Shown in pieces: positions 2,878 to 42,784 of a DNA stretch of 42,784 nt. Under the pieces are notes generated by a model. The model made no database searches, was not told the DNA's origin, and saw only the letters and a program-made list of their open reading frames with translations. The translations under genes were made by a program, and so were the position numbers. Position 1 is the stretch's first letter; every line of letters begins with the position of its first letter. The DNA comes from Staphylococcus phage SpaA1, in sequence record HE614281.1; one strand, written 5' to 3'.

Positions 2878-4311
2878 ATGTTTGAACACTACATTCCGTT
2901 ACTGGATGAAGAAAATGGTGAACCCACACCTAAGCTACTCAAAAAGATTATTGATGAGTTTGAACCACTAAAACAACGCATGATAAATAGGTATGAGCGT
3001 TACAAAGCAAGTGAGAAAGGCGTACCTATATTCACACGTGAGTTTAAAGGTGATGGGAATAAGGACAAGGTTAACAACAAGCTAAACAATGATTTCTTTT
3101 CTGAAATTATTGATACAAAAATAGGATATATGTTCGGATTGCCTATTTCATACAGTCTAGATCATGAAGACGAGGAAGTATTGAAGCGTATCCAAGACTT
3201 TTTAAAATCGAATCATACCGAAGATGCTGACGCGGAAACAGGAAAGTTTGCTTCTATTTGCGGTTATGGAGCGAGACTGCTTTACCATGACAAAGAAGGA
3301 ATTGAAAAGGTTATGAATATCAAACCTTATGAAGCAATATTTCTTACTAATTCAAGCATTGCAGAGCCTAAATACGCTATCCGCTGCTATCCAATCAAAG
3401 TAATCGATGGTGATGATTTCAAAGACGGATACAAAGTGGAATTTTACAATGATACGCAAATCATTGAGTACACTGGTGAAGATTTAGATAAGTTGAAAGA
3501 AACAAATCGAATTACTAATTTATACAAAGGTGTACCACTTATCGGATTTCCTAACAATGAAGAATTGCAGGGGGATGTCGATAAAGCTATTTCTCTTATT
3601 GAGGGATATGATAGGGCTATCTCTGATGTAAATAGTGAGATTGAGCAGTTCCGTTTGGCTTATATGATTTTCAAAGGTGTGGATATAGATGATGATACCA
3701 TTGAGAAATTAAAACAAACTGGAGCTCTGGATGTAGGCGAGAATGGCGAGGCTAATTTTTTAACTAAGGACCTTAATGACAACATTTTAGAACATCATCT
3801 AGACAGGTTAGAAAAGAATATATGCCGATTCACGAAGCATGTGAACCTTTCTGATGAATCGTTTGGTGGTAACCTTACTGGTGTTGCTATTCGTTATAAG
3901 TTGCTATCGTTAGAAACAAAATCCGGTACATTAGAAATGAAATTCACTAAGTCATTGCGACAACAATTTAAGTTACTATTCGACGCTTGGAATTTACGCT
4001 CAAATAAAGAAGAATTAGATTACCTTTGCATGACGTTCCAATTTACACGTAACCTTCCAGCAAACTTATCTGATGAAGCTGATGTTCAGTCTAAATTACA
4101 GGGTTTAATAAGCGAAGAAACACGATTATCTATGTTATCTGTTATTCCTGATCCAAAGGCAGAATTACAAAAGATGAAGGAAGAAGAGGTTGATTCTATC
4201 GATTTAGACACTGTACATAAAGGCGGTGAAAACGATGGAATGGGACAAGAAGCAGAAACACCTCCAAAAGATAGAGGACGAGCTGGAAAAGGCGATTCTC
4301 TACCTGTATAA
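2878..4311 (+). CDS. Portal protein
   Basis: 477 aa directly after terL; size and composition typical of SPP1-type portal; disordered acidic C-terminus. Confidence 0.85.
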   Translation: MFEHYIPLLDEENGEPTPKLLKKIIDEFEPLKQRMINRYERYKASEKGVPIFTREFKGDGNKDKVNNKLNNDFFSEIIDTKIGYMFGLPISYSLDHEDEEVLKRIQDFLKSNHTEDADAETGKFASICGYGARLLYHDKEGIEKVMNIKPYEAIFLTNSSIAEPKYAIRCYPIKVIDGDDFKDGYKVEFYNDTQIIEYTGEDLDKLKETNRITNLYKGVPLIGFPNNEELQGDVDKAISLIEGYDRAISDVNSEIEQFRLAYMIFKGVDIDDDTIEKLKQTGALDVGENGEANFLTKDLNDNILEHHLDRLEKNICRFTKHVNLSDESFGGNLTGVAIRYKLLSLETKSGTLEMKFTKSLRQQFKLLFDAWNLRSNKEELDYLCMTFQFTRNLPANLSDEADVQSKLQGLISEETRLSMLSVIPDPKAELQKMKEEEVDSIDLDTVHKGGENDGMGQEAETPPKDRGRAGKGDSLPV

Positions 4312-5152
4312 AGATGCTTTGGAAGAAGTCAGAGGAATACTGGCTTTTTATTATGCTAAATATGCGATAAATGAGCAGTTAAGTATGCAGGAAATGCGTC
4401 GATTTAATCGATACAAGAACCTGCAAAGTGAACTACAGCAAGTTATTAATGAAATAACTTATGAGAAAAAGAAAACTCTCAATGAAACACTCTCCACTCA
4501 ATATGGGGAGTCTTTTTATTATACGAGTTATCTTATCGAAAAAGAGGTTGGTGTATCCCTTTCATATGGGCTGATTGACCCGAACGTCATTAAGCGAGCG
4601 GTACAAATGCCTATCGATAAAATGACACTCAATCAAAGGTTAAGTACTCATCGAGCACAGATAATTAGCCGAATACGTAAAGAACTATCCATCGGCCTTA
4701 GAAAAGGTGAAGGGTATGCGGTAATGGCTAATCGTATTAAGCCTATTCTTGATGGGGATGCGAAGAAAGCACAAATGGTTGCATGGACAGAAAGTGCTAG
4801 AGTACAAAACTTAGGTACTTATGACAGTGCCTCGCAAGCTTTTGACGAAGGTGTATCAATGGAGAAGATTTGGATTTCTACATTAGATAAACGTACACGT
4901 CCTACTCACCAAGCAGCAGACCATCAAAAAGTACCGTTTAAAGGATTATTTAAAGTTGGTGGTTATAGTTGTGAATATCCACACGATAGTAATTTACCTG
5001 CTAAAGAGGTTGTACGCTGCCGCTGTACTTTCATTACGGAAGTAGCGGATGTTAGTCCATTTATTGAGAGAAGGGCTAGAAACCCGACAACAGGTAGGAA
5101 TGAAGTTATTACAGCAGTTAGTTATGAAGAATGGAAGGACGGTCTAGAATAA
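4235..5152 (+). CDS. Head morphogenesis / minor capsid protein (SPP1 gp7 / Mu F-like)
   Basis: Follows the portal; about 300 aa; ATG at 4235 after RBS AAAGGCGGTG (the track starts at GTG 4226). Confidence 0.7.
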   Translation: MEWDKKQKHLQKIEDELEKAILYLYKDALEEVRGILAFYYAKYAINEQLSMQEMRRFNRYKNLQSELQQVINEITYEKKKTLNETLSTQYGESFYYTSYLIEKEVGVSLSYGLIDPNVIKRAVQMPIDKMTLNQRLSTHRAQIISRIRKELSIGLRKGEGYAVMANRIKPILDGDAKKAQMVAWTESARVQNLGTYDSASQAFDEGVSMEKIWISTLDKRTRPTHQAADHQKVPFKGLFKVGGYSCEYPHDSNLPAKEVVRCRCTFITEVADVSPFIERRARNPTTGRNEVITAVSYEEWKDGLE

Positions 5153-5424
5153 TGAATTTTGGAAAAGCACTCGAATTAATGAAAAGTGGCAATAAGTTGT
5201 CACGTAAAGGTTGGAACGGTAAGAATATGTTTGCTGTTTATCAAAAAGGATATCCTGATGGAATTCCTTGTAATAAACAAACGGCAGAAGCTTGGGGATT
5301 AAATGAAGGTGATTTATTTAAGGTACGACCTTACTTGCAATTACGTTGTGCTGATGGCACTCATGCGATGTGGGTTCCAAGTGTATCTGATATTTTAGCT
5401 GAAGATTGGATGATTGTTGAATAA
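5152..5424 (+). CDS. DUF2829-family small protein (paralogue 1 of 4), a moron inside the head module
   Basis: N-terminus MNFGKALELMKSGNKLSRKGWNGKNMF and C-terminus ILAEDWMIVE are shared with ORFs 35076, 41263 and 41505. Its start overlaps the upstream stop (TAATG). Confidence 0.6.
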   Translation: MNFGKALELMKSGNKLSRKGWNGKNMFAVYQKGYPDGIPCNKQTAEAWGLNEGDLFKVRPYLQLRCADGTHAMWVPSVSDILAEDWMIVE

Positions 5425-19115: not shown

Positions 19116-20084
19116 ATGATTAGTGTGAAACGAATAGTAGACCAAGCAATTTACGAAAAGCATGTTAGCCAAGGAAATAAAAACCTAGTCAAAGATTTTC
19201 TGATTGAAAAGAAAGCACAAGGAAAAGCGGCAAGCACTTTAAAGCAATACGGTTGGGATTTACGAATTATTTTGTTTCTAATACATCAACACTTCGGAAA
19301 TAAAAATCTTATTGATTTAACGCGTAAAGATATTCGAAATTTATCTATTATTTTTCAAGATATGAGGATGTCTAATGCTCGTGTGAACGGATTAATGAGT
19401 GCATTAAGGTCCGCGTTAGAGTTTTGTGCGGATGATGATGACTATGATTATGAATTTAATGTAGGTTCACGGGTACGTGGTTTACCTAAGAATCCAGTTA
19501 GAGAAATCACTTTTATAACAGAAGAACAAATTGAGTGGTTAATCGATGAGCTAATAGCACAAGAAAGATATATGTTAGCAACGTATTTAGCACTTTCTTA
19601 TTACAGTGCAGCTAGAAAGAATGAGGTATACCAGGTTCAAAAAGAAGGGCTGACAGAACAATATTATACAAATGTGGTACGAGGAAAACGGGGTAAGAAG
19701 TTTAGATTATATTACAATCACCGGGTGCAGAAATGCATTCGTTTATATATAAATCAGCGAGGTAAGGATACTATTCCAGATTTGTTTGTGCGTGTGTATA
19801 AGAATGGTGAGAGAAAGAGATTGAACAAGAGTGTATTTAATTATTGGTGCGATATATTTGCTAAGATGCTGAACGAAAAGGAAGGGAAGGAATTTAAAAT
19901 GAATCCTCACTGTTTTCGACATAGCAGATTAGATAACTTGAAAGTACAAGGCGTACCACTTGAAAAACTAAAATCACTCGCCAATCATTCTGACATCTCA
20001 ACTACGGAGTCTTATCTAAAAGATAGAAGCGAAGAAGATATTGCAGAAATATTTGGAATGGATCCAAGTTACTTTGCAGCATAA
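19116..20084 (+). CDS. Tyrosine site-specific recombinase (XerC/XerD-like, no N-terminal arm-binding domain)
   Basis: 322 aa; core-binding region; catalytic ARKNE (Arg), HCFRHSR (His-x-x-Arg), and Tyr nucleophile in TTESYL. Confidence 0.8.
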   Translation: MISVKRIVDQAIYEKHVSQGNKNLVKDFLIEKKAQGKAASTLKQYGWDLRIILFLIHQHFGNKNLIDLTRKDIRNLSIIFQDMRMSNARVNGLMSALRSALEFCADDDDYDYEFNVGSRVRGLPKNPVREITFITEEQIEWLIDELIAQERYMLATYLALSYYSAARKNEVYQVQKEGLTEQYYTNVVRGKRGKKFRLYYNHRVQKCIRLYINQRGKDTIPDLFVRVYKNGERKRLNKSVFNYWCDIFAKMLNEKEGKEFKMNPHCFRHSRLDNLKVQGVPLEKLKSLANHSDISTTESYLKDRSEEDIAEIFGMDPSYFAA

Positions 20085-25889: not shown

Positions 25890-26990
25890 TCAACTCTTTA
25901 AAGGGCGTAGGTCACGAATTGGTAACGAAAATGATAAATCTTGTTCCATAAATGCAACCACTTCTGCTTGTTTTGACGGATATAAATGACTATATGTATT
26001 TAACGTCGTTGACACATCCGAATGTCCTAGGCGCTGGGCTACCACAAGTGGACTGACACCTCTATTTATTAAATAAGATGCATGGGAATGTCGAAATTCA
26101 TGAAGTAGAATTTTTGGTATTCCAGAAGCAACAACATATTTGGCAAAACGTTTATGAAGGGTAGCTGTCGCTATACTTGTGTAAAATTCACCAAATACAA
26201 TATAATCATTTTTTATCGGTGCTCCTAATGTAGCATGTTCTTTTAATGTTTTCAATAAGTCTATGACAAGAGACGGTAGCATAATAATACGATTTGATGC
26301 TTTGGTTTTGGGTTTTGTAACTTGTCTGTTATAGTTGGTTTTATTAATATTAATTGATTTTTCTTCAAAGTTAATATCTTCCCATGTTAATGCTAGCAAT
26401 TCGCCAGTTCTTGCCCCGCTATAATAAAGAGTCGTAAAAAAGGCTTGATACAGTAAATCATCTACTACATGAATGAATTGTTTAAACTCATCAAACTCCC
26501 AAAAGTTTAATCGTTTATTCGATTCTTTTTCAAAGTTGCCAGCAATTTTTGCTGGATTACTTGTGAGACCAAAAAACTTTATTGCGAAATTAAAAATTGA
26601 GGACAGTACGGTATGAATCTTTTTCAAATAAACAGCTGAATACTTATGAATAATTTCGTTTTGGTAGATCATGATATGCTTAGCAGTTATGTTGTTAATT
26701 TTTGATTTCCCGAATTTTTTTAGTAAATGATTTTCAAGGATGGCTTTAATTGTGTTAATTGAAGACTGTTTTCTTCTCTGGCAATACCAATCAAAATAGC
26801 TATCAGCAACTTGAGCAAAAGTTAAACTTGAAGTTGTTTCTTTTTCCACTAACATTTTGGCTTCCGCTTCACGAGCTTCTTTTTTTGTTTTAAATCCACG
26901 ACGTTTTACTTGTTTTTGAGTGCCATCAAACTGACGGACTCTGACAACGAAGAAATATGTTCCGCGTTCTTTATCTTTGTAGACCACCAT
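25890..26990 (-). CDS. int: Tyrosine integrase (phage integrase family with N-terminal arm-type DNA-binding domain)
   Basis: 366 aa; N-terminal arm-binding-like domain; catalytic region with R, HEFRHSHASYL (His-x-x-Arg), and Tyr in LNTYSHLY. Confidence 0.9.
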   Translation of the reverse strand: MVVYKDKERGTYFFVVRVRQFDGTQKQVKRRGFKTKKEAREAEAKMLVEKETTSSLTFAQVADSYFDWYCQRRKQSSINTIKAILENHLLKKFGKSKINNITAKHIMIYQNEIIHKYSAVYLKKIHTVLSSIFNFAIKFFGLTSNPAKIAGNFEKESNKRLNFWEFDEFKQFIHVVDDLLYQAFFTTLYYSGARTGELLALTWEDINFEEKSININKTNYNRQVTKPKTKASNRIIMLPSLVIDLLKTLKEHATLGAPIKNDYIVFGEFYTSIATATLHKRFAKYVVASGIPKILLHEFRHSHASYLINRGVSPLVVAQRLGHSDVSTTLNTYSHLYPSKQAEVVAFMEQDLSFSLPIRDLRPLKS

Positions 26991-31851: not shown

Positions 31852-32499
31852 ATGACAGCAGAAGAATTATTTGAAGAAAAGAAATATTTAGTGATTGCAG
31901 CAGTTAAGCAACAATTTGGAAGTATCGCAAGAGCTGGACAGATTGCAGAAATAAACAATATGGATTTGGATGATTTAATACAAGTTGGCCATCTGTATTT
32001 ATGGGAGCATTGTATGAATTATGATCCAGAGAGAGTAGATACATTCAATGCATACGTGATGAAAGGCATGAAATGGGCAATGAGTGATGAGCTTCACTTG
32101 AAAGGGACGCCTTTTAAGATAAGCAGACGAGTTGGTCATGAGGAACGGAATAAAATGAATATTCATTCGATTGATTTGCATCGAGATGGAGAAACGGTAA
32201 AAGAATTTTATGCAGTGTCTCCTATCGATGTGGAACAAGAAGCGATATTATCCATTGAATTTGAAGAAATGACGAGTGTACTTGAAGAAAAAGAAAAGTC
32301 AATTATTCTGCACGTCGGTGAAGGGTATACCACAAGAGAAATTGCTGTGAAATTAGAGATGAAGAAATCTACTGTTCAAACAAGAAAGACACGGGCATTT
32401 TTAAAGATGAATCCAGATTATAAGCCAATAAAACAAAAATCCTTTTTCTTGGGGAAAAGAATGATAAAGAGAAACCACCAGTTGGGGCTGGTGATCTAA
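31852..32499 (+). CDS. Sigma-70 family RNA polymerase sigma factor (phage-encoded)
   Basis: 215 aa. The region-2-like stretch is DLIQVGHLYLWEHCMNYDPERVDTFNAYVMKGMKWAMSDEL. The region-4 HTH is GEGYTTREIAVKLEMKKSTVQTRKTRAFLKM. Confidence 0.7.
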   Translation: MTAEELFEEKKYLVIAAVKQQFGSIARAGQIAEINNMDLDDLIQVGHLYLWEHCMNYDPERVDTFNAYVMKGMKWAMSDELHLKGTPFKISRRVGHEERNKMNIHSIDLHRDGETVKEFYAVSPIDVEQEAILSIEFEEMTSVLEEKEKSIILHVGEGYTTREIAVKLEMKKSTVQTRKTRAFLKMNPDYKPIKQKSFFLGKRMIKRNHQLGLVI

Positions 32500-35075: not shown

Positions 35076-35291
35076 ATGAATATACAAGAAGCTACTAAGT
35101 TAGCGATGGAACAAAATAAATTTATTTCACGATTACACTTTATGAAGACCTTTAAGGTCAAGATTAAGCCAACAAATACGTATGAGTTGTGTGGAAATTA
35201 TCCAATTTATCCTAACGAATTTAAACCGCGCAGGGCGTGGAATCCCTGCGCAGATGATTTAATTGCTGATGATTGGATAATTGTTGATTAA
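35076..35291 (+). CDS. DUF2829-family small protein (divergent paralogue 2 of 4)
   Basis: C-terminus LIADDWIIVD and an N-terminal helix pattern are shared with ORFs 5152, 41263 and 41505; RBS GAGGTGGGAAAATAATG. Confidence 0.5.
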   Translation: MNIQEATKLAMEQNKFISRLHFMKTFKVKIKPTNTYELCGNYPIYPNEFKPRRAWNPCADDLIADDWIIVD

Positions 35292-35587
35292 GGTAACCAT
35301 GATCTTGCTTCTTTTGCAAATTTGTATCCGGTTTTAAGAGAATTATTCTCTTCACAATATGCAATCCCTTGTGGAAGTAAGACAGTGTTATAGGCAACAT
35401 TGTCTGCTGCATACACAGAGACTAAATCTTCATCTCGCAAACGATAGAGTGCTTTCGAAATAAAATCATCAGTCTCATTTTGGTACAACTCTTTAAATGT
35501 TTCAAAAGAGAACATATCTGTCCCATGGTTTTTATACTCAGTTACCATGTATTTTAGTAGTTTTTCTGAAAGCTTAGTTATTTTCAT
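35288..35587 (-). CDS. YjcQ-like small winged-helix protein, antisense-oriented within the early region
   Basis: 99 aa; strong RBS GAGGGGAGGTGTAATTAATG on minus strand; pattern L..L.E...YSDD...L..G....EN...AYK..KE..W resembles the Bacillus prophage YjcQ family (recalled, not aligned). Confidence 0.45.
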   Translation of the reverse strand: MKITKLSEKLLKYMVTEYKNHGTDMFSFETFKELYQNETDDFISKALYRLRDEDLVSVYAADNVAYNTVLLPQGIAYCEENNSLKTGYKFAKEARSWLP

Positions 35588-39230: not shown

Positions 39231-39446
39231 ATGAAAAAATTAATGCAGCAGTATATAGAAACAAGAAAAGAATTAGAAAATTCTAAGGTAGGCGCAACAG
39301 AAAAGGATATAAGTATTATCAATGGAATGATCAGTGATATTAATTACGCTCTAGAATGGATGCGTACTGCTAAACAGCCAGGGAAAAAAGAGGAATTGAA
39401 CGTAGGGCGGCATATGAACGTGAGAAACCATGTGACCCATTATTAA
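39231..39446 (+). CDS. Small protein, possibly the N-terminal portion of a split ArpU/RinA-type late regulator
   Basis: 71 aa from ATG 39231 after AAAAGGAGGAACC (the track start 39108 lies in a non-coding-looking leader); stop overlaps the next start (TAATG). Confidence 0.4.
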   Translation: MKKLMQQYIETRKELENSKVGATEKDISIINGMISDINYALEWMRTAKQPGKKEELNVGRHMNVRNHVTHY

Positions 39447-39730
39447 TGCAAAGATATGTGCGTAGTACTGTAATGCCAGTATATGAATGGGATACAGCAG
39501 CAAAAGAAAGTGTTATCTCTGAATGGGACCGTATGCAGTTAGAAGATGCATTATCAACTTTAACGGATAGAGAAAAGGAAATATATGTAATGTCTAGAGG
39601 TCATGGTTTAACGATGGAAAAAATATCTAATTATTTAGGGGTGAAAAAAACTACTATTCAAAACCATTTAGAAAGAGCAGATAAGAAGATTGGAAAAAGA
39701 ATAAATGAAAGTCTCTTCTGCATGTTTTGA
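39446..39730 (+). CDS. ArpU-family / sigma-70 region-4-like phage late transcriptional regulator
   Basis: LTDREKEIYVMSRGHGLTMEKISNYLGVKKTTIQNHLERADKKI is a classic sigma region-4 HTH; last regulator before the non-coding gap. Confidence 0.6.
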   Translation: MQRYVRSTVMPVYEWDTAAKESVISEWDRMQLEDALSTLTDREKEIYVMSRGHGLTMEKISNYLGVKKTTIQNHLERADKKIGKRINESLFCMF

Positions 39731-40622: not shown

Positions 40623-40865
40623 ATGGATAATCAATATCTTGCGGAAAGAATCGATCGATTAGAAAAATTAGTTAATGATTTAGATAGTGTAAATCGAGAT
40701 CAACAAAAAGTAATTAACGACTTATGTATGAGAATTGAAGGTGTAGTCAACACGATTGATCATTTAAAAAAGGAATTAAGCACTAAAATGAGCGTTCTTC
40801 CTAAAGATGCGCAAGAAAAGATAGAGAAGTTAAAGAAAGCTGCGGAGGGAATTGTAGATGGCTAA
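40623..40865 (+). CDS. Hypothetical coiled-coil protein, paralogue of 8-337
   Basis: It shares 24 nt of RBS/start context (GGAGGATGAAGGATGGATAATCAA) and the N-terminal MDNQ.Y with the window-start gene. Confidence 0.45.
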   Translation: MDNQYLAERIDRLEKLVNDLDSVNRDQQKVINDLCMRIEGVVNTIDHLKKELSTKMSVLPKDAQEKIEKLKKAAEGIVDG

Positions 40866-41124: not shown

Positions 41125-41262
41125 TTAAACCAATAGCAATTATCGTAGGCGCTTCCGTGATCTGGGGGCGTCTTGTTTGTTGTTAAGGAAAGATAAGCGC
41201 AAACGTGTTGCATTTTAGAAAACAAATGGACACAATGAACGGAAATAGAGGAGGAAATAATA

Positions 41263-41505
41263 ATGAATTTCGGTCAAGCTCTAGAAGCGTTGAAACAAGG
41301 TAAAAAAGTAAAAAGGTCTATTTGGGGTGGATATTGGTTTCTCTCCAAGAATCCAGAGGTAAAAGAAGAACTGAACGCTGGATATGTAAGGGAATTTCAA
41401 ACTCACGATATGATATTCGCTGTATTAAAGGATAATGGTGGGGTTGTACCCGCTCAAGCGTACCAAGCTGATATGTTAGCAGAAGATTGGGAGGTTGTTG
41501 AATAA
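41263..41505 (+). CDS. DUF2829-family small protein (paralogue 3 of 4; tandem with 41505)
   Basis: MNFGQALEALKQGKKVKRSIWGG...MLAEDWEVVE; RBS GAGGAGGAAATAATAATG. Confidence 0.6.
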   Translation: MNFGQALEALKQGKKVKRSIWGGYWFLSKNPEVKEELNAGYVREFQTHDMIFAVLKDNGGVVPAQAYQADMLAEDWEVVE

Positions 41506-41768
41506 TGAGTTTTGGACAAGCGATAGTGGCACTAGTGCAAGGGAAAAACGTAGCTCGTGAAGGATGGAACGGTAAAAATATGTTTTTGTATCTTATTGAA
41601 GGTAATAAATTGTCTAAGGGATTAGGATATGGATACGGCGAGTATGTAGGGGTAGAACCTTCATTTGTTGATACCATTGCAATGAAGACTGCACAAAATA
41701 CAATTGTTGTTGGCTGGCTCGCATCCCAAACGGATATGTTAGCAAATGACTGGGTAATTTTAAATTAA
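41505..41768 (+). CDS. DUF2829-family small protein (paralogue 4 of 4)
   Basis: MSFGQAIVALVQGKNVAREGWNGKNMF...MLANDWVILN; the start overlaps the stop of paralogue 3 (TAATG). Confidence 0.6.
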   Translation: MSFGQAIVALVQGKNVAREGWNGKNMFLYLIEGNKLSKGLGYGYGEYVGVEPSFVDTIAMKTAQNTIVVGWLASQTDMLANDWVILN

Positions 41769-42375: not shown

Positions 42376-42759
42376 ATGGTAATGGAACAGGATATTAATG
42401 AAATAAGTTTTAAGTATCTTAGTCCTATATGCGAAACATTCAAACTTGATTTTGATGAAATCTCCGATGATGTCAAAAGACATGTGAATGCTAACAATTC
42501 TAAAATCAATGCTTCTAATGCTGTTCTAGGTATGCGTTTTATCTTATCGAGAATATGGTGTACAGATATGCATAAGGAATTAGGTGCGATTGATTGGAAG
42601 ACAGTAAAAGAAAATATTTATAAGGTTTCTAGATCATTAGTTAGTAAACCGGAAGAACAATATCAATTCATTAGAAAAGTCGCTGGTGCACAAGGTTACT
42701 TTATGCTGTGGCTATTATTAGAAGAAATGCACGAGAAAGAAATGTTAGCGCTGGAATAA
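42376..42759 (+). CDS. Hypothetical protein
   Basis: Preceded by the conserved leader TTTTTATTTTGGAGGGAG, also seen at 19095 and 42765; 127 aa. Confidence 0.4.
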   Translation: MVMEQDINEISFKYLSPICETFKLDFDEISDDVKRHVNANNSKINASNAVLGMRFILSRIWCTDMHKELGAIDWKTVKENIYKVSRSLVSKPEEQYQFIRKVAGAQGYFMLWLLLEEMHEKEMLALE

Positions 42760-42784
42760 GTGCTATTTTTTATTTTGGAGGAGG

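Follow-up and report, generated by a model that had tools for sequence, protein, structure and literature searches.

Four DUF2829/Tad2-family genes from separate subfamilies in the mosaic genome of phage SpaA1, candidate sponges for bacterial immune signals

Staphylococcus phage SpaA1 (HE614281.1) is a temperate siphovirus with Bacillus cereus, B. thuringiensis and, reportedly, Staphylococcus pasteuri as hosts (Swanson et al. 2012, PMC3398947). Its genome, the window of 42,784 nucleotides analysed here, contains four small open reading frames (ORFs) of the DUF2829 (Tad2-like) family, all real and all on the plus strand: paralogue A (5152-5424, ORF7, 90 amino acids), paralogue B (35076-35291, ORF45, 71 amino acids), paralogue C (41263-41505, ORF60, 80 amino acids) and paralogue D (41505-41768, ORF61, 87 amino acids). 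A sequence-only reading had proposed these four ORFs and had assigned them to DUF2829, with C and D as a tandem pair, and on each of these points it was borne out. Against the full Pfam profile PF11195 ('Tad2-like'), whose gathering score is 25 bits, A reaches 91.3 bits (E 5.7e-26), D 85.7 bits (E 3.1e-24), C 69.2 bits (E 4.6e-19) and B 40.7 bits (E 3.4e-10); since all four lie above the gathering score, their similarity to the family is far beyond chance. The elements of the Tad2 fold, an N-terminal helix, an antiparallel beta-sheet and a short C-terminal helix with (E/D)DW, are present, and A, C and D can be aligned end to end with solved Tad2 chains. When a hidden Markov model built from our own alignments was run over all six frames, on each stop-to-stop stretch that reached 45 codons, exactly A to D were recovered, and no fifth DUF2829 copy was found in the genome.

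The motifs by which the four had been grouped are shared less evenly than proposed. The N-terminal pattern M(N/S)FG.A...GW.G is found in A, C and D, whereas B (MNIQEATKLAMEQNKFISRLHF) is without GW.G, and the end of B, DDLIADDWIIVD, fits the proposed C-terminal pattern only loosely. The membership of the four copies in the family is solid and largely annotated already, the DUF2829 identity being not new for A, C and D. In the 2012 description of the phage, ORF7, ORF60 and ORF61 were each named 'homolog of gp34.65 of SPO1, DUF2829' (PMC3398947), the RefSeq counterparts of A, C and D in phages Waukesha92 and phi4J1 carry the DUF2829 label, and the current NCBI name for homologues of B and C is 'Thoeris anti-defense Tad2 family protein'. 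A scan of A to D against NCBIfam release 20 returned no match.

Tad2 proteins have been reported to be plastic sponges that inhibit Thoeris types I, II and IV, Pycsar and CBASS, the characterised members being homotetramers with ligand pockets between protomers. In the structure of SPO1 Tad2 with 3' cyclic ADP-ribose (3'cADPR) the pocket is made by two protomers, each giving W25/N26 and W73/D79; W25 and W73 make van der Waals contacts and N26 and D79 polar ones, the adenine is contacted by T78, I63 and T65, and D67, H71 and S76 contribute water-mediated contacts. These ten positions were mapped through one alignment and, in the order W25 N26 I63 T65 D67 H71 W73 S76 T78 D79, read W N M T Q V W S T D in D, W N L C D A W S S D in A, W N L T D A W S S D in ModTad2, W G A L D V A Y A D in C and F - P R - - W C D D in B. 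The canonical set for an ADP-ribose-type signal (W25, N26, W73, S76, T78 or Ser, D79) is complete in D (W N W S T D) and A (W N W S S D) and incomplete in C (W G A Y A D) and B (F - W C D D); the altered pocket residues of C are invariant inside its own clade, and likewise those of B.

The nearest characterised relative of paralogue D is SPO1 Tad2 (Gp34.65; PDB 8SME/8SMF/8SMG), the founding Thoeris anti-defence 2 sponge, which takes up 3'cADPR. The match is full length (8sme, E 6.3e-23, 54% identity), both proteins have a short beta2-beta3 insert with G-x-G-x-G-x-GEY, and every direct 3'cADPR contact (W25, N26, W73, S76, T78, D79) is retained in D. The two differ at two water-mediating positions (D67 to Q and H71 to V), and D is a gene of a temperate siphovirus and adjoins a second, non-canonical DUF2829 gene. 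The ratio of nonsynonymous to synonymous substitution (dN/dS) of the D gene against its relatives is 0.11-0.12. D is a candidate for a canonical SPO1-Tad2-like sponge that would take up the 3'cADPR of type I Thoeris, and it very probably acts as a homo-oligomeric signal sponge.

For paralogue A the nearest solved structure is that of ModTad2, also called MoTad2 (Myroides odoratus prophage; PDB 8V3E, 9EIB; E 7.5e-23, 55% identity), a sponge for the histidine-ADP-ribose (His-ADPR) of type II Thoeris and for the cyclic nucleotides cUMP/cCMP of Pycsar, whose canonical site takes His-ADPR, cUMP being bound at a second interface. The two proteins agree at nine of the ten mapped pocket positions and have in common a PSVSDILAEDW C-terminus, in which the T78 position is taken by Ser, together with a lengthened insert that follows beta2, so that A belongs to the ModTad2 clade both by closest sequence kinship and by this insert. 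A differs from ModTad2 in an insert about 5 residues longer, in a Cys at T65 and in its location in a head operon. A may accordingly be viewed as a ModTad2-type sponge candidate for His-ADPR of type II Thoeris and possibly for cUMP/cCMP, and it probably acts, with good confidence, as a homo-oligomeric signal sponge.

Paralogue C is a different case. Its best match in the PDB is SPO1 Tad2, at only E 8e-8, its identity to any characterised protein is at most 41%, and a sequence search of the PDB found no solved C-type structure. The contact positions are changed from N26 to G, W73 to A, S76 to Y and T78 to A. A set of 38 relatives (54-92% identity) keeps the invariant signature R-x2-W-G-G-(Y)-W ... 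I-x-A-x-L-(K-D)-x2-G ... Y-Q-x-D ... D-W, with W21 G22 G23 W25 ... G60 Y67 Q68 D70 as the invariant residues of the clade, which argues that the pocket change is conserved and does not reflect decay; dN/dS of the C gene against relatives is 0.07-0.12. A profile search of 1.84 billion representatives retrieved 2,028 50%-identity clusters at E<=1e-3, only 135 of which reached E<=1e-10, and the C-type is therefore a minority branch. The C-type is tied to anti-Thoeris activity, by way of a fusion in another genome only, through cluster P0279, in which Tad5 (PF25190, E 7e-31), which acts directly on the TIR protein ThsB to inhibit its active site, is fused to a C-type DUF2829 domain; SpaA1 itself has no Tad5. 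C can thus be described as a WGGYW variant with a pocket that is rebuilt yet conserved, probably for a TIR-derived ligand other than 3'cADPR or bound differently from it; that it acts as a homo-oligomeric signal sponge is, on balance, somewhat favoured.

Further C-type domains (P0262-P0264, P0270/P0286, P0274, P0288, P0295, P0298) are fused to recurring N-terminal domains of about 75-180 amino acids, which form at least two recognisably related groups, and no Pfam domain other than Tad5 was found above threshold in the C-type fusion partners. Phages are documented to fuse sponges of different families, and sponges have been discovered by way of such fusions; because this fusion logic served published sponge discovery, the Pfam-less N-terminal partners are candidates for new anti-defence domains.

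Paralogue B is the most divergent in its relation to known structures. PF11195 is its only Pfam match and phrog_643 its PHROG, no PDB sequence was matched at E<=10, and identity to characterised proteins is at most 27%. An AlphaFold model based on a multiple sequence alignment (pLDDT 81.7, pTM 0.69) has the order helix-strand-strand-strand-helix-strand, and its 13 best Foldseek matches in the PDB are all Tad2 (TM 0.49-0.70, probability up to 0.99). B is without the W25/N26 loop and keeps W73, D79 and the C-terminal DDW helix; its clade has the invariants N2 I3 Q4 E5 ... P32 N34 W55 P57 A64 D65 D66 W67, that is, a signature NIQEA ... P-T-N ... W-x-P ... ADDW. Among the 104 B-type phage records 94 are from Staphylococcus temperate phages, and in Staphylococcus phage phiNM3 the B-type gene directly follows cro, in immediate-early position. 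The ligand and sponge activity of B are the least certain of the four, and a homo-oligomeric sponge is here a tentative proposal, with the balance leaning slightly against it.

Taken together these data make it likely that A to D are four homo-oligomeric signal sponges with different specificities and expression timing. SpaA1 would encode four small soluble Tad2-fold proteins from anciently separated subfamilies, each of which would assemble into its own homo-oligomer and hold back a different immune signal derived from nucleotides; the effectors of Thoeris-type (TIR) and possibly Pycsar or CBASS systems would then never be activated. D would take up 3'cADPR; A would take up His-ADPR and possibly cUMP/cCMP and would be made together with the head proteins; C, coupled translationally to D, would form with it a two-sponge cassette; and B would be the early-region copy. 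The earlier suggestion that the diverged copies have different ligand specificities finds indirect support, in that A and D are nearest to two proven specificity classes and the pockets of C and B are changed. Several points weigh against the proposal of four sponges: C and B are without several of the residues that directly hold 3'cADPR in SPO1 Tad2; the sponge status of both would rest on the fold and, for C, also on clade conservation and fusion partners; the ModTad2-type assignment of A draws on overall similarity and shared mappable positions; and the late-operon place of A is unusual for an anti-defence gene and could reflect a role in head assembly.

The first of these points leads to the strongest alternative, that one or more of the paralogues, especially B or C, have the Tad2 fold and are no sponges, acting instead by protein binding or in early gene regulation. 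B without W25/N26, C without N26, W73 and T78, and the failure of B to match any solved Tad2 in sequence would all be accounted for in this way, as would the company that B keeps, since it is placed with cro and the anti-repressor and its clade retains a convergent YjcQ-like partner in both Bacillus and Staphylococcus phages. In SpaA1 this partner is ORF46 (35288-35587, minus strand; phrog_3675 and phrog_750), which overlaps the 3' end of B, and in phiNM3 (L123, 3705-4034, minus strand) it is gp09 (phrog_750), which likewise converges on the B-type gene and overlaps its 3' end; the two are 33% identical over 61 amino acids (E 2e-4). However, Pfam shows no helix-turn-helix (HTH) or other domain in B, the model of B has Tad2 topology with only Tad2 among its top structural matches, and the retained W73, D79 and DDW helix are those of the family; the C clade, for its part, conserves an aromatic-rich, acidic alternative pocket and is found fused to Tad5, and the Tad2 family has proved experimentally very plastic in its choice of ligand. 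A role other than that of a sponge is unlikely, though it keeps an appreciable chance.

If C and D are both sponges, as preferred here, the question arises whether they work separately. The stop-start overlap that had been noted between them is real, the TAA of C (41503-41505) and the ATG of D (41505-41507) sharing one base in a TAATG (41503-41507, plus strand), which argues for translational coupling. Direct reading of the sequence also places a GAGGAGG ribosome-binding site 8 nucleotides upstream of the C start (41248-41254, plus strand) and a GGAGG site 10 nucleotides before the ATG of D (41490-41494, plus strand). This coupling, together with the Tad2 pocket that spans two protomers, so that a mixed interface would give a new pocket, could mean that C and D build a single hetero-oligomeric sponge, such as a C2D2 tetramer with hybrid pockets, and not two homotetramers. 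The same could be read from at least four independent arrangements in which C-type and canonical genes occur together. In IMG/VR, a C gene is followed by a D gene in L002/BMBtp3, a canonical copy is followed by a C-type copy in L010, the order is reversed in L021 (Lactobacillus phage Nyseid), and a D-type gene lies about 500 nucleotides upstream of a C-type gene on two B. cereus-group contigs (L042/L043); in L019 (2946-3627) three DUF2829 genes with overlapping stops and starts stand head to tail, a WGGYW-type gene (78 amino acids), a very divergent copy (71 amino acids) and an A-type copy 90% identical to SpaA1 A. An abundant two-domain family (more than 120 clusters at 72% identity or above, full or near-full length) moreover joins an N-terminal WGGYW-type domain to a C-terminal canonical one, which is the order of C and D.

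Most of the evidence nevertheless speaks against an obligate complex. C-type genes are mostly solitary, with a second copy in only about 4 of about 21 C-clade IMG/VR loci, and canonical Tad2 is nearly always single-copy (343 records, 350 places). In L003-L007 the C gene itself is the sole part in common with SpaA1, in the form of a single-gene cassette; an origin of these C-only loci by loss of D was considered and rejected, given that only the C gene is shared and that the context is a head module. The fused WGGYW N-domains resemble C over its N-terminal 25 or so residues only and are more distant relatives, and an AlphaFold model of one such natural fusion (P0138), taken as a proxy for C-D, folds both domains (pLDDT 79.6) at a pTM of 0.55, with no confident packing between them. 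Known sponge fusions, furthermore, have been read as independent oligomers; the Tad2-Acb4 and Tad2-Sequestin fusions described by the Sorek laboratory follow the same two-module logic as the coupled C-D pair and the WGGYW-canonical fusions, but in the latter two both modules are of one fold family. In the literature searched no description of heterotypic Tad2-Tad2 fusions, tandems or heterotetramers was found. A hetero-oligomer is improbable, and because C-type genes are mostly alone, L003-L007 share only that gene and the fusion model stays at a pTM of 0.55, C and D are favoured as two independent sponges deployed as a cassette.

Around this pair, a consensus scan finds a terminator-like hairpin with a T-run just upstream of C (41147-41173, plus strand), no sigma-70-like promoter between this hairpin and C, and the next terminator-like site only at 42746-42765, for which reason C, D, ORF62 and ORF63 may be one transcription unit. 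The neighbours of C/D and of B belong to no Pfam family, except for the DUF3954 of ORF44, which adjoins B, and to PHROGs of unknown function; the same Pfam/PHROG scan of neighbour genes detected no other known sponge beside C/D or B.

The setting of A is that of a structural gene, and A could on this account be a head-assembly or virion accessory protein and not an anti-defence factor. Its start overlaps, in a TAATG at 5150-5154, the end of the directly upstream gene for a MuF-like minor head protein (4226-5152, plus strand; ORF table and the 'head morphogenesis' annotation of Waukesha92), to which it would be coupled translationally, and it lies inside the head-morphogenesis operon before the scaffold and capsid genes. 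The placement is conserved in the clade: among 80 A-type IMG/VR loci (at least 72% identity), a MuF-like gene ends within 600 nucleotides upstream in 41 and other head genes are found in 15 more, a count that is a lower bound because the head-gene probes came from two lineages only. Against a structural role stands the 55% identity to the proven sponge ModTad2, with its nine equal pocket positions out of ten, as well as the behaviour of the slot itself, which elsewhere holds other DUF2829 subtypes or tandem copies in the manner of a typical accessory cargo slot. In eight of the 80 loci this slot, which lies between MuF and scaffold, contains a further DUF2829 gene, and the place held by A in SpaA1 is taken in L003 by a gene with 94% identity to C; many related head modules, for example that of BtCS33, are without such a gene. 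For one staphylococcal Thoeris system the trigger, sensed by the TIR protein, is reported to be the major head protein (PMC12578639), and a sponge co-expressed with the head proteins would for this reason make sense. A head protein is thus quite unlikely, and A remains best regarded as a putative ModTad2-type sponge.

The first function proposed for a DUF2829 protein was that of an anti-CRISPR, and A to D might likewise be AcrIIA7-like inhibitors of Cas9. Some homologues in phage records are indeed named 'anti-CRISPR protein', and D and A match AcrIIA7/HgmTad2 chains (8kbi, E 2e-18 and 1e-14; 9kzr, E 1e-17 and 5e-13, respectively). Type II CRISPR-Cas systems are not known as a typical feature of the B. 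cereus group, which counts against an activity of this kind. HgmTad2/AcrIIA7 itself, moreover, binds glyco-cyclic ADP-ribose (gcADPR) and the cyclic dinucleotide cGG, and the paper reporting the discovery of Tad2 notes that binding to Cas9 was never shown and argues for an anti-Thoeris family; inhibition of Cas9 by the SpaA1 proteins is highly improbable. HgmTad2/AcrIIA7 and SptTad2 (PDB 8KBI-8KBM, 8WJC, 8WJD), dual sponges for gcADPR and cyclic dinucleotides, have the domain in common with A to D, and HgmTad2 resembles D in its GWLASQTDMLANDWVI C-terminus. Residues 32-72 of HgmTad2, an insertion of about 40 residues that forms the cyclic-dinucleotide pocket (cGG/cGAMP) of these two proteins, are in the alignment absent from A, B, C and D, so that cyclic-dinucleotide binding by this route is not expected in any of the four.

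As to origin, the four copies derive from four old, distinct subfamilies joined by module swapping. Pairwise identity among them is 23-41%, with C and D at 41%; D is nearer to SPO1 Tad2 (54%) than to C, and A is nearer to ModTad2 than to any sibling. The SpaA1 genome is a mosaic of three parts, Waukesha-like, BtCS33-like and MZTP02-like. At its right end (38.2-42.8 kb) it matches Waukesha92, phi4J1, phiS58 and TP21T, all Waukeshavirus phages, with 99.9-100% identity, and the region 20.0-35.7 kb is 100% identical to BtCS33, phi4I1 and BtiUFT6.51-F. When the donor genomes were scanned with the hidden Markov model, Waukesha92 and TP21T each gave A, C and D, and BtCS33 gave B alone, which shows an origin by mosaic recombination and not by expansion within the genome: a Waukesha-like backbone with A, C and D was joined to a BtCS33-like replication module carrying B. 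Compared with their relatives, A, C and D have gene-wide dN/dS values of 0.07-0.17; these three genes are therefore under purifying selection, constrained and functional, with no gene-wide diversifying signal. The arms-race expansion that the sequence-only reading had offered as its other option is thus not supported by the identities, by dN/dS or by the donors. Recent duplication with diversifying selection in SpaA1 could call on the C/D tandem and on P0018, the B. cereus-group protein of contigs L042/L043, which has a C body with the 'WVILN' tail of D and hints at an exchange between C and D genes at their common C-terminal motif, the D-type gene of these contigs lying upstream of it and not downstream; given the low identities, the closer outside relatives of D and A, the low dN/dS and modules from different donor lineages, it is hardly credible.

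Multi-copy carriage is uncommon. In a tblastn search of 50,697 phage records, which undercounts matches across DUF2829 subfamilies, D matched 343 records, A 393, C 82 and B 104, and additional places beyond one per record were few (7 for D, 7 for A, 14 for C and 2 for B); the multi-copy records among the matches listed were those of the Bacillus lineage of SpaA1 and of two Lactobacillus phages. In the TP21T record (MK843319.1) the terminase-proximal end, including the C/D pair, is repeated in inverted orientation (46135-46640 and about 47568-51949), which gives four tblastn places; either an assembly artefact or a real inverted duplication is possible.

The remaining database labels, 'MW1434 family type I toxin-antitoxin toxin' for some C homologues and, for B, 'XRE family transcriptional regulator' (2012) or 'transcriptional regulator' (PHROGs, RefSeq), are backed by names only and carry next to no weight, as MW1434 is a toxin by computational listing in its source paper, with no assay there, NCBIfam gives no match, A to D have no hydrophobic segment (maximum 19-residue Kyte-Doolittle value <=0.89; grand average of hydropathy negative for A, B and C), and B has no HTH family in Pfam (E<=1), no HTH structural match and a Tad2 topology. 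The regulator label of the B-type probably arose from its place right after cro.

Other features of the mosaic were recorded along the way. Two ORFs, one between the tail and lysis genes (19116-20084) and one within the lysogeny region (25890-26990, minus strand), match genes annotated as integrase in SpaA1 and BtCS33. Two sigma-factor-like genes are present (31852-32499 and about 39446-39730), and ORF1 (8-337) and ORF58 (40623-40865), at opposite ends of the linear genome, encode small proteins that are distant paralogues, as judged from reciprocal cross-matches to phrog_8488 and phrog_7303.

These results leave the current picture of anti-defence unchanged; they refine annotation and propose targets for ligand discovery, and the case is an informative and not a surprising one. 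Three leads emerge for the family: the WGGYW variant of the pocket, which is conserved and for which no structure has been solved, a B clade that is widespread in Staphylococcus phages and mislabelled as transcriptional regulators, and a recurrent slot for sponge cargo between MuF and scaffold genes. It is possible, if doubtful, that the C-type constitutes a sponge class of its own, directed at a TIR-derived or other immune signal that has so far not been linked to Tad2, or that it remodels the pocket of a canonical partner. If so, phages would deploy the C-type together with canonical Tad2 as coupled genes or, in the case of WGGYW-motif domains, as fusions, the B-type would be a further, immediate-early class, and SpaA1 would be a natural four-sponge phage directed at three or four signals at least, with early (B) and late, capsid-triggered (A) timing. 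Published work describes one Tad2 homologue per phage, whereas SpaA1 has four deeply diverged ones in 43 kb, two of which (A and D) map to different proven specificity classes; the phage is thus a compact natural test-bed for the partition of specificity among paralogues and for the timing of sponges in relation to their trigger.

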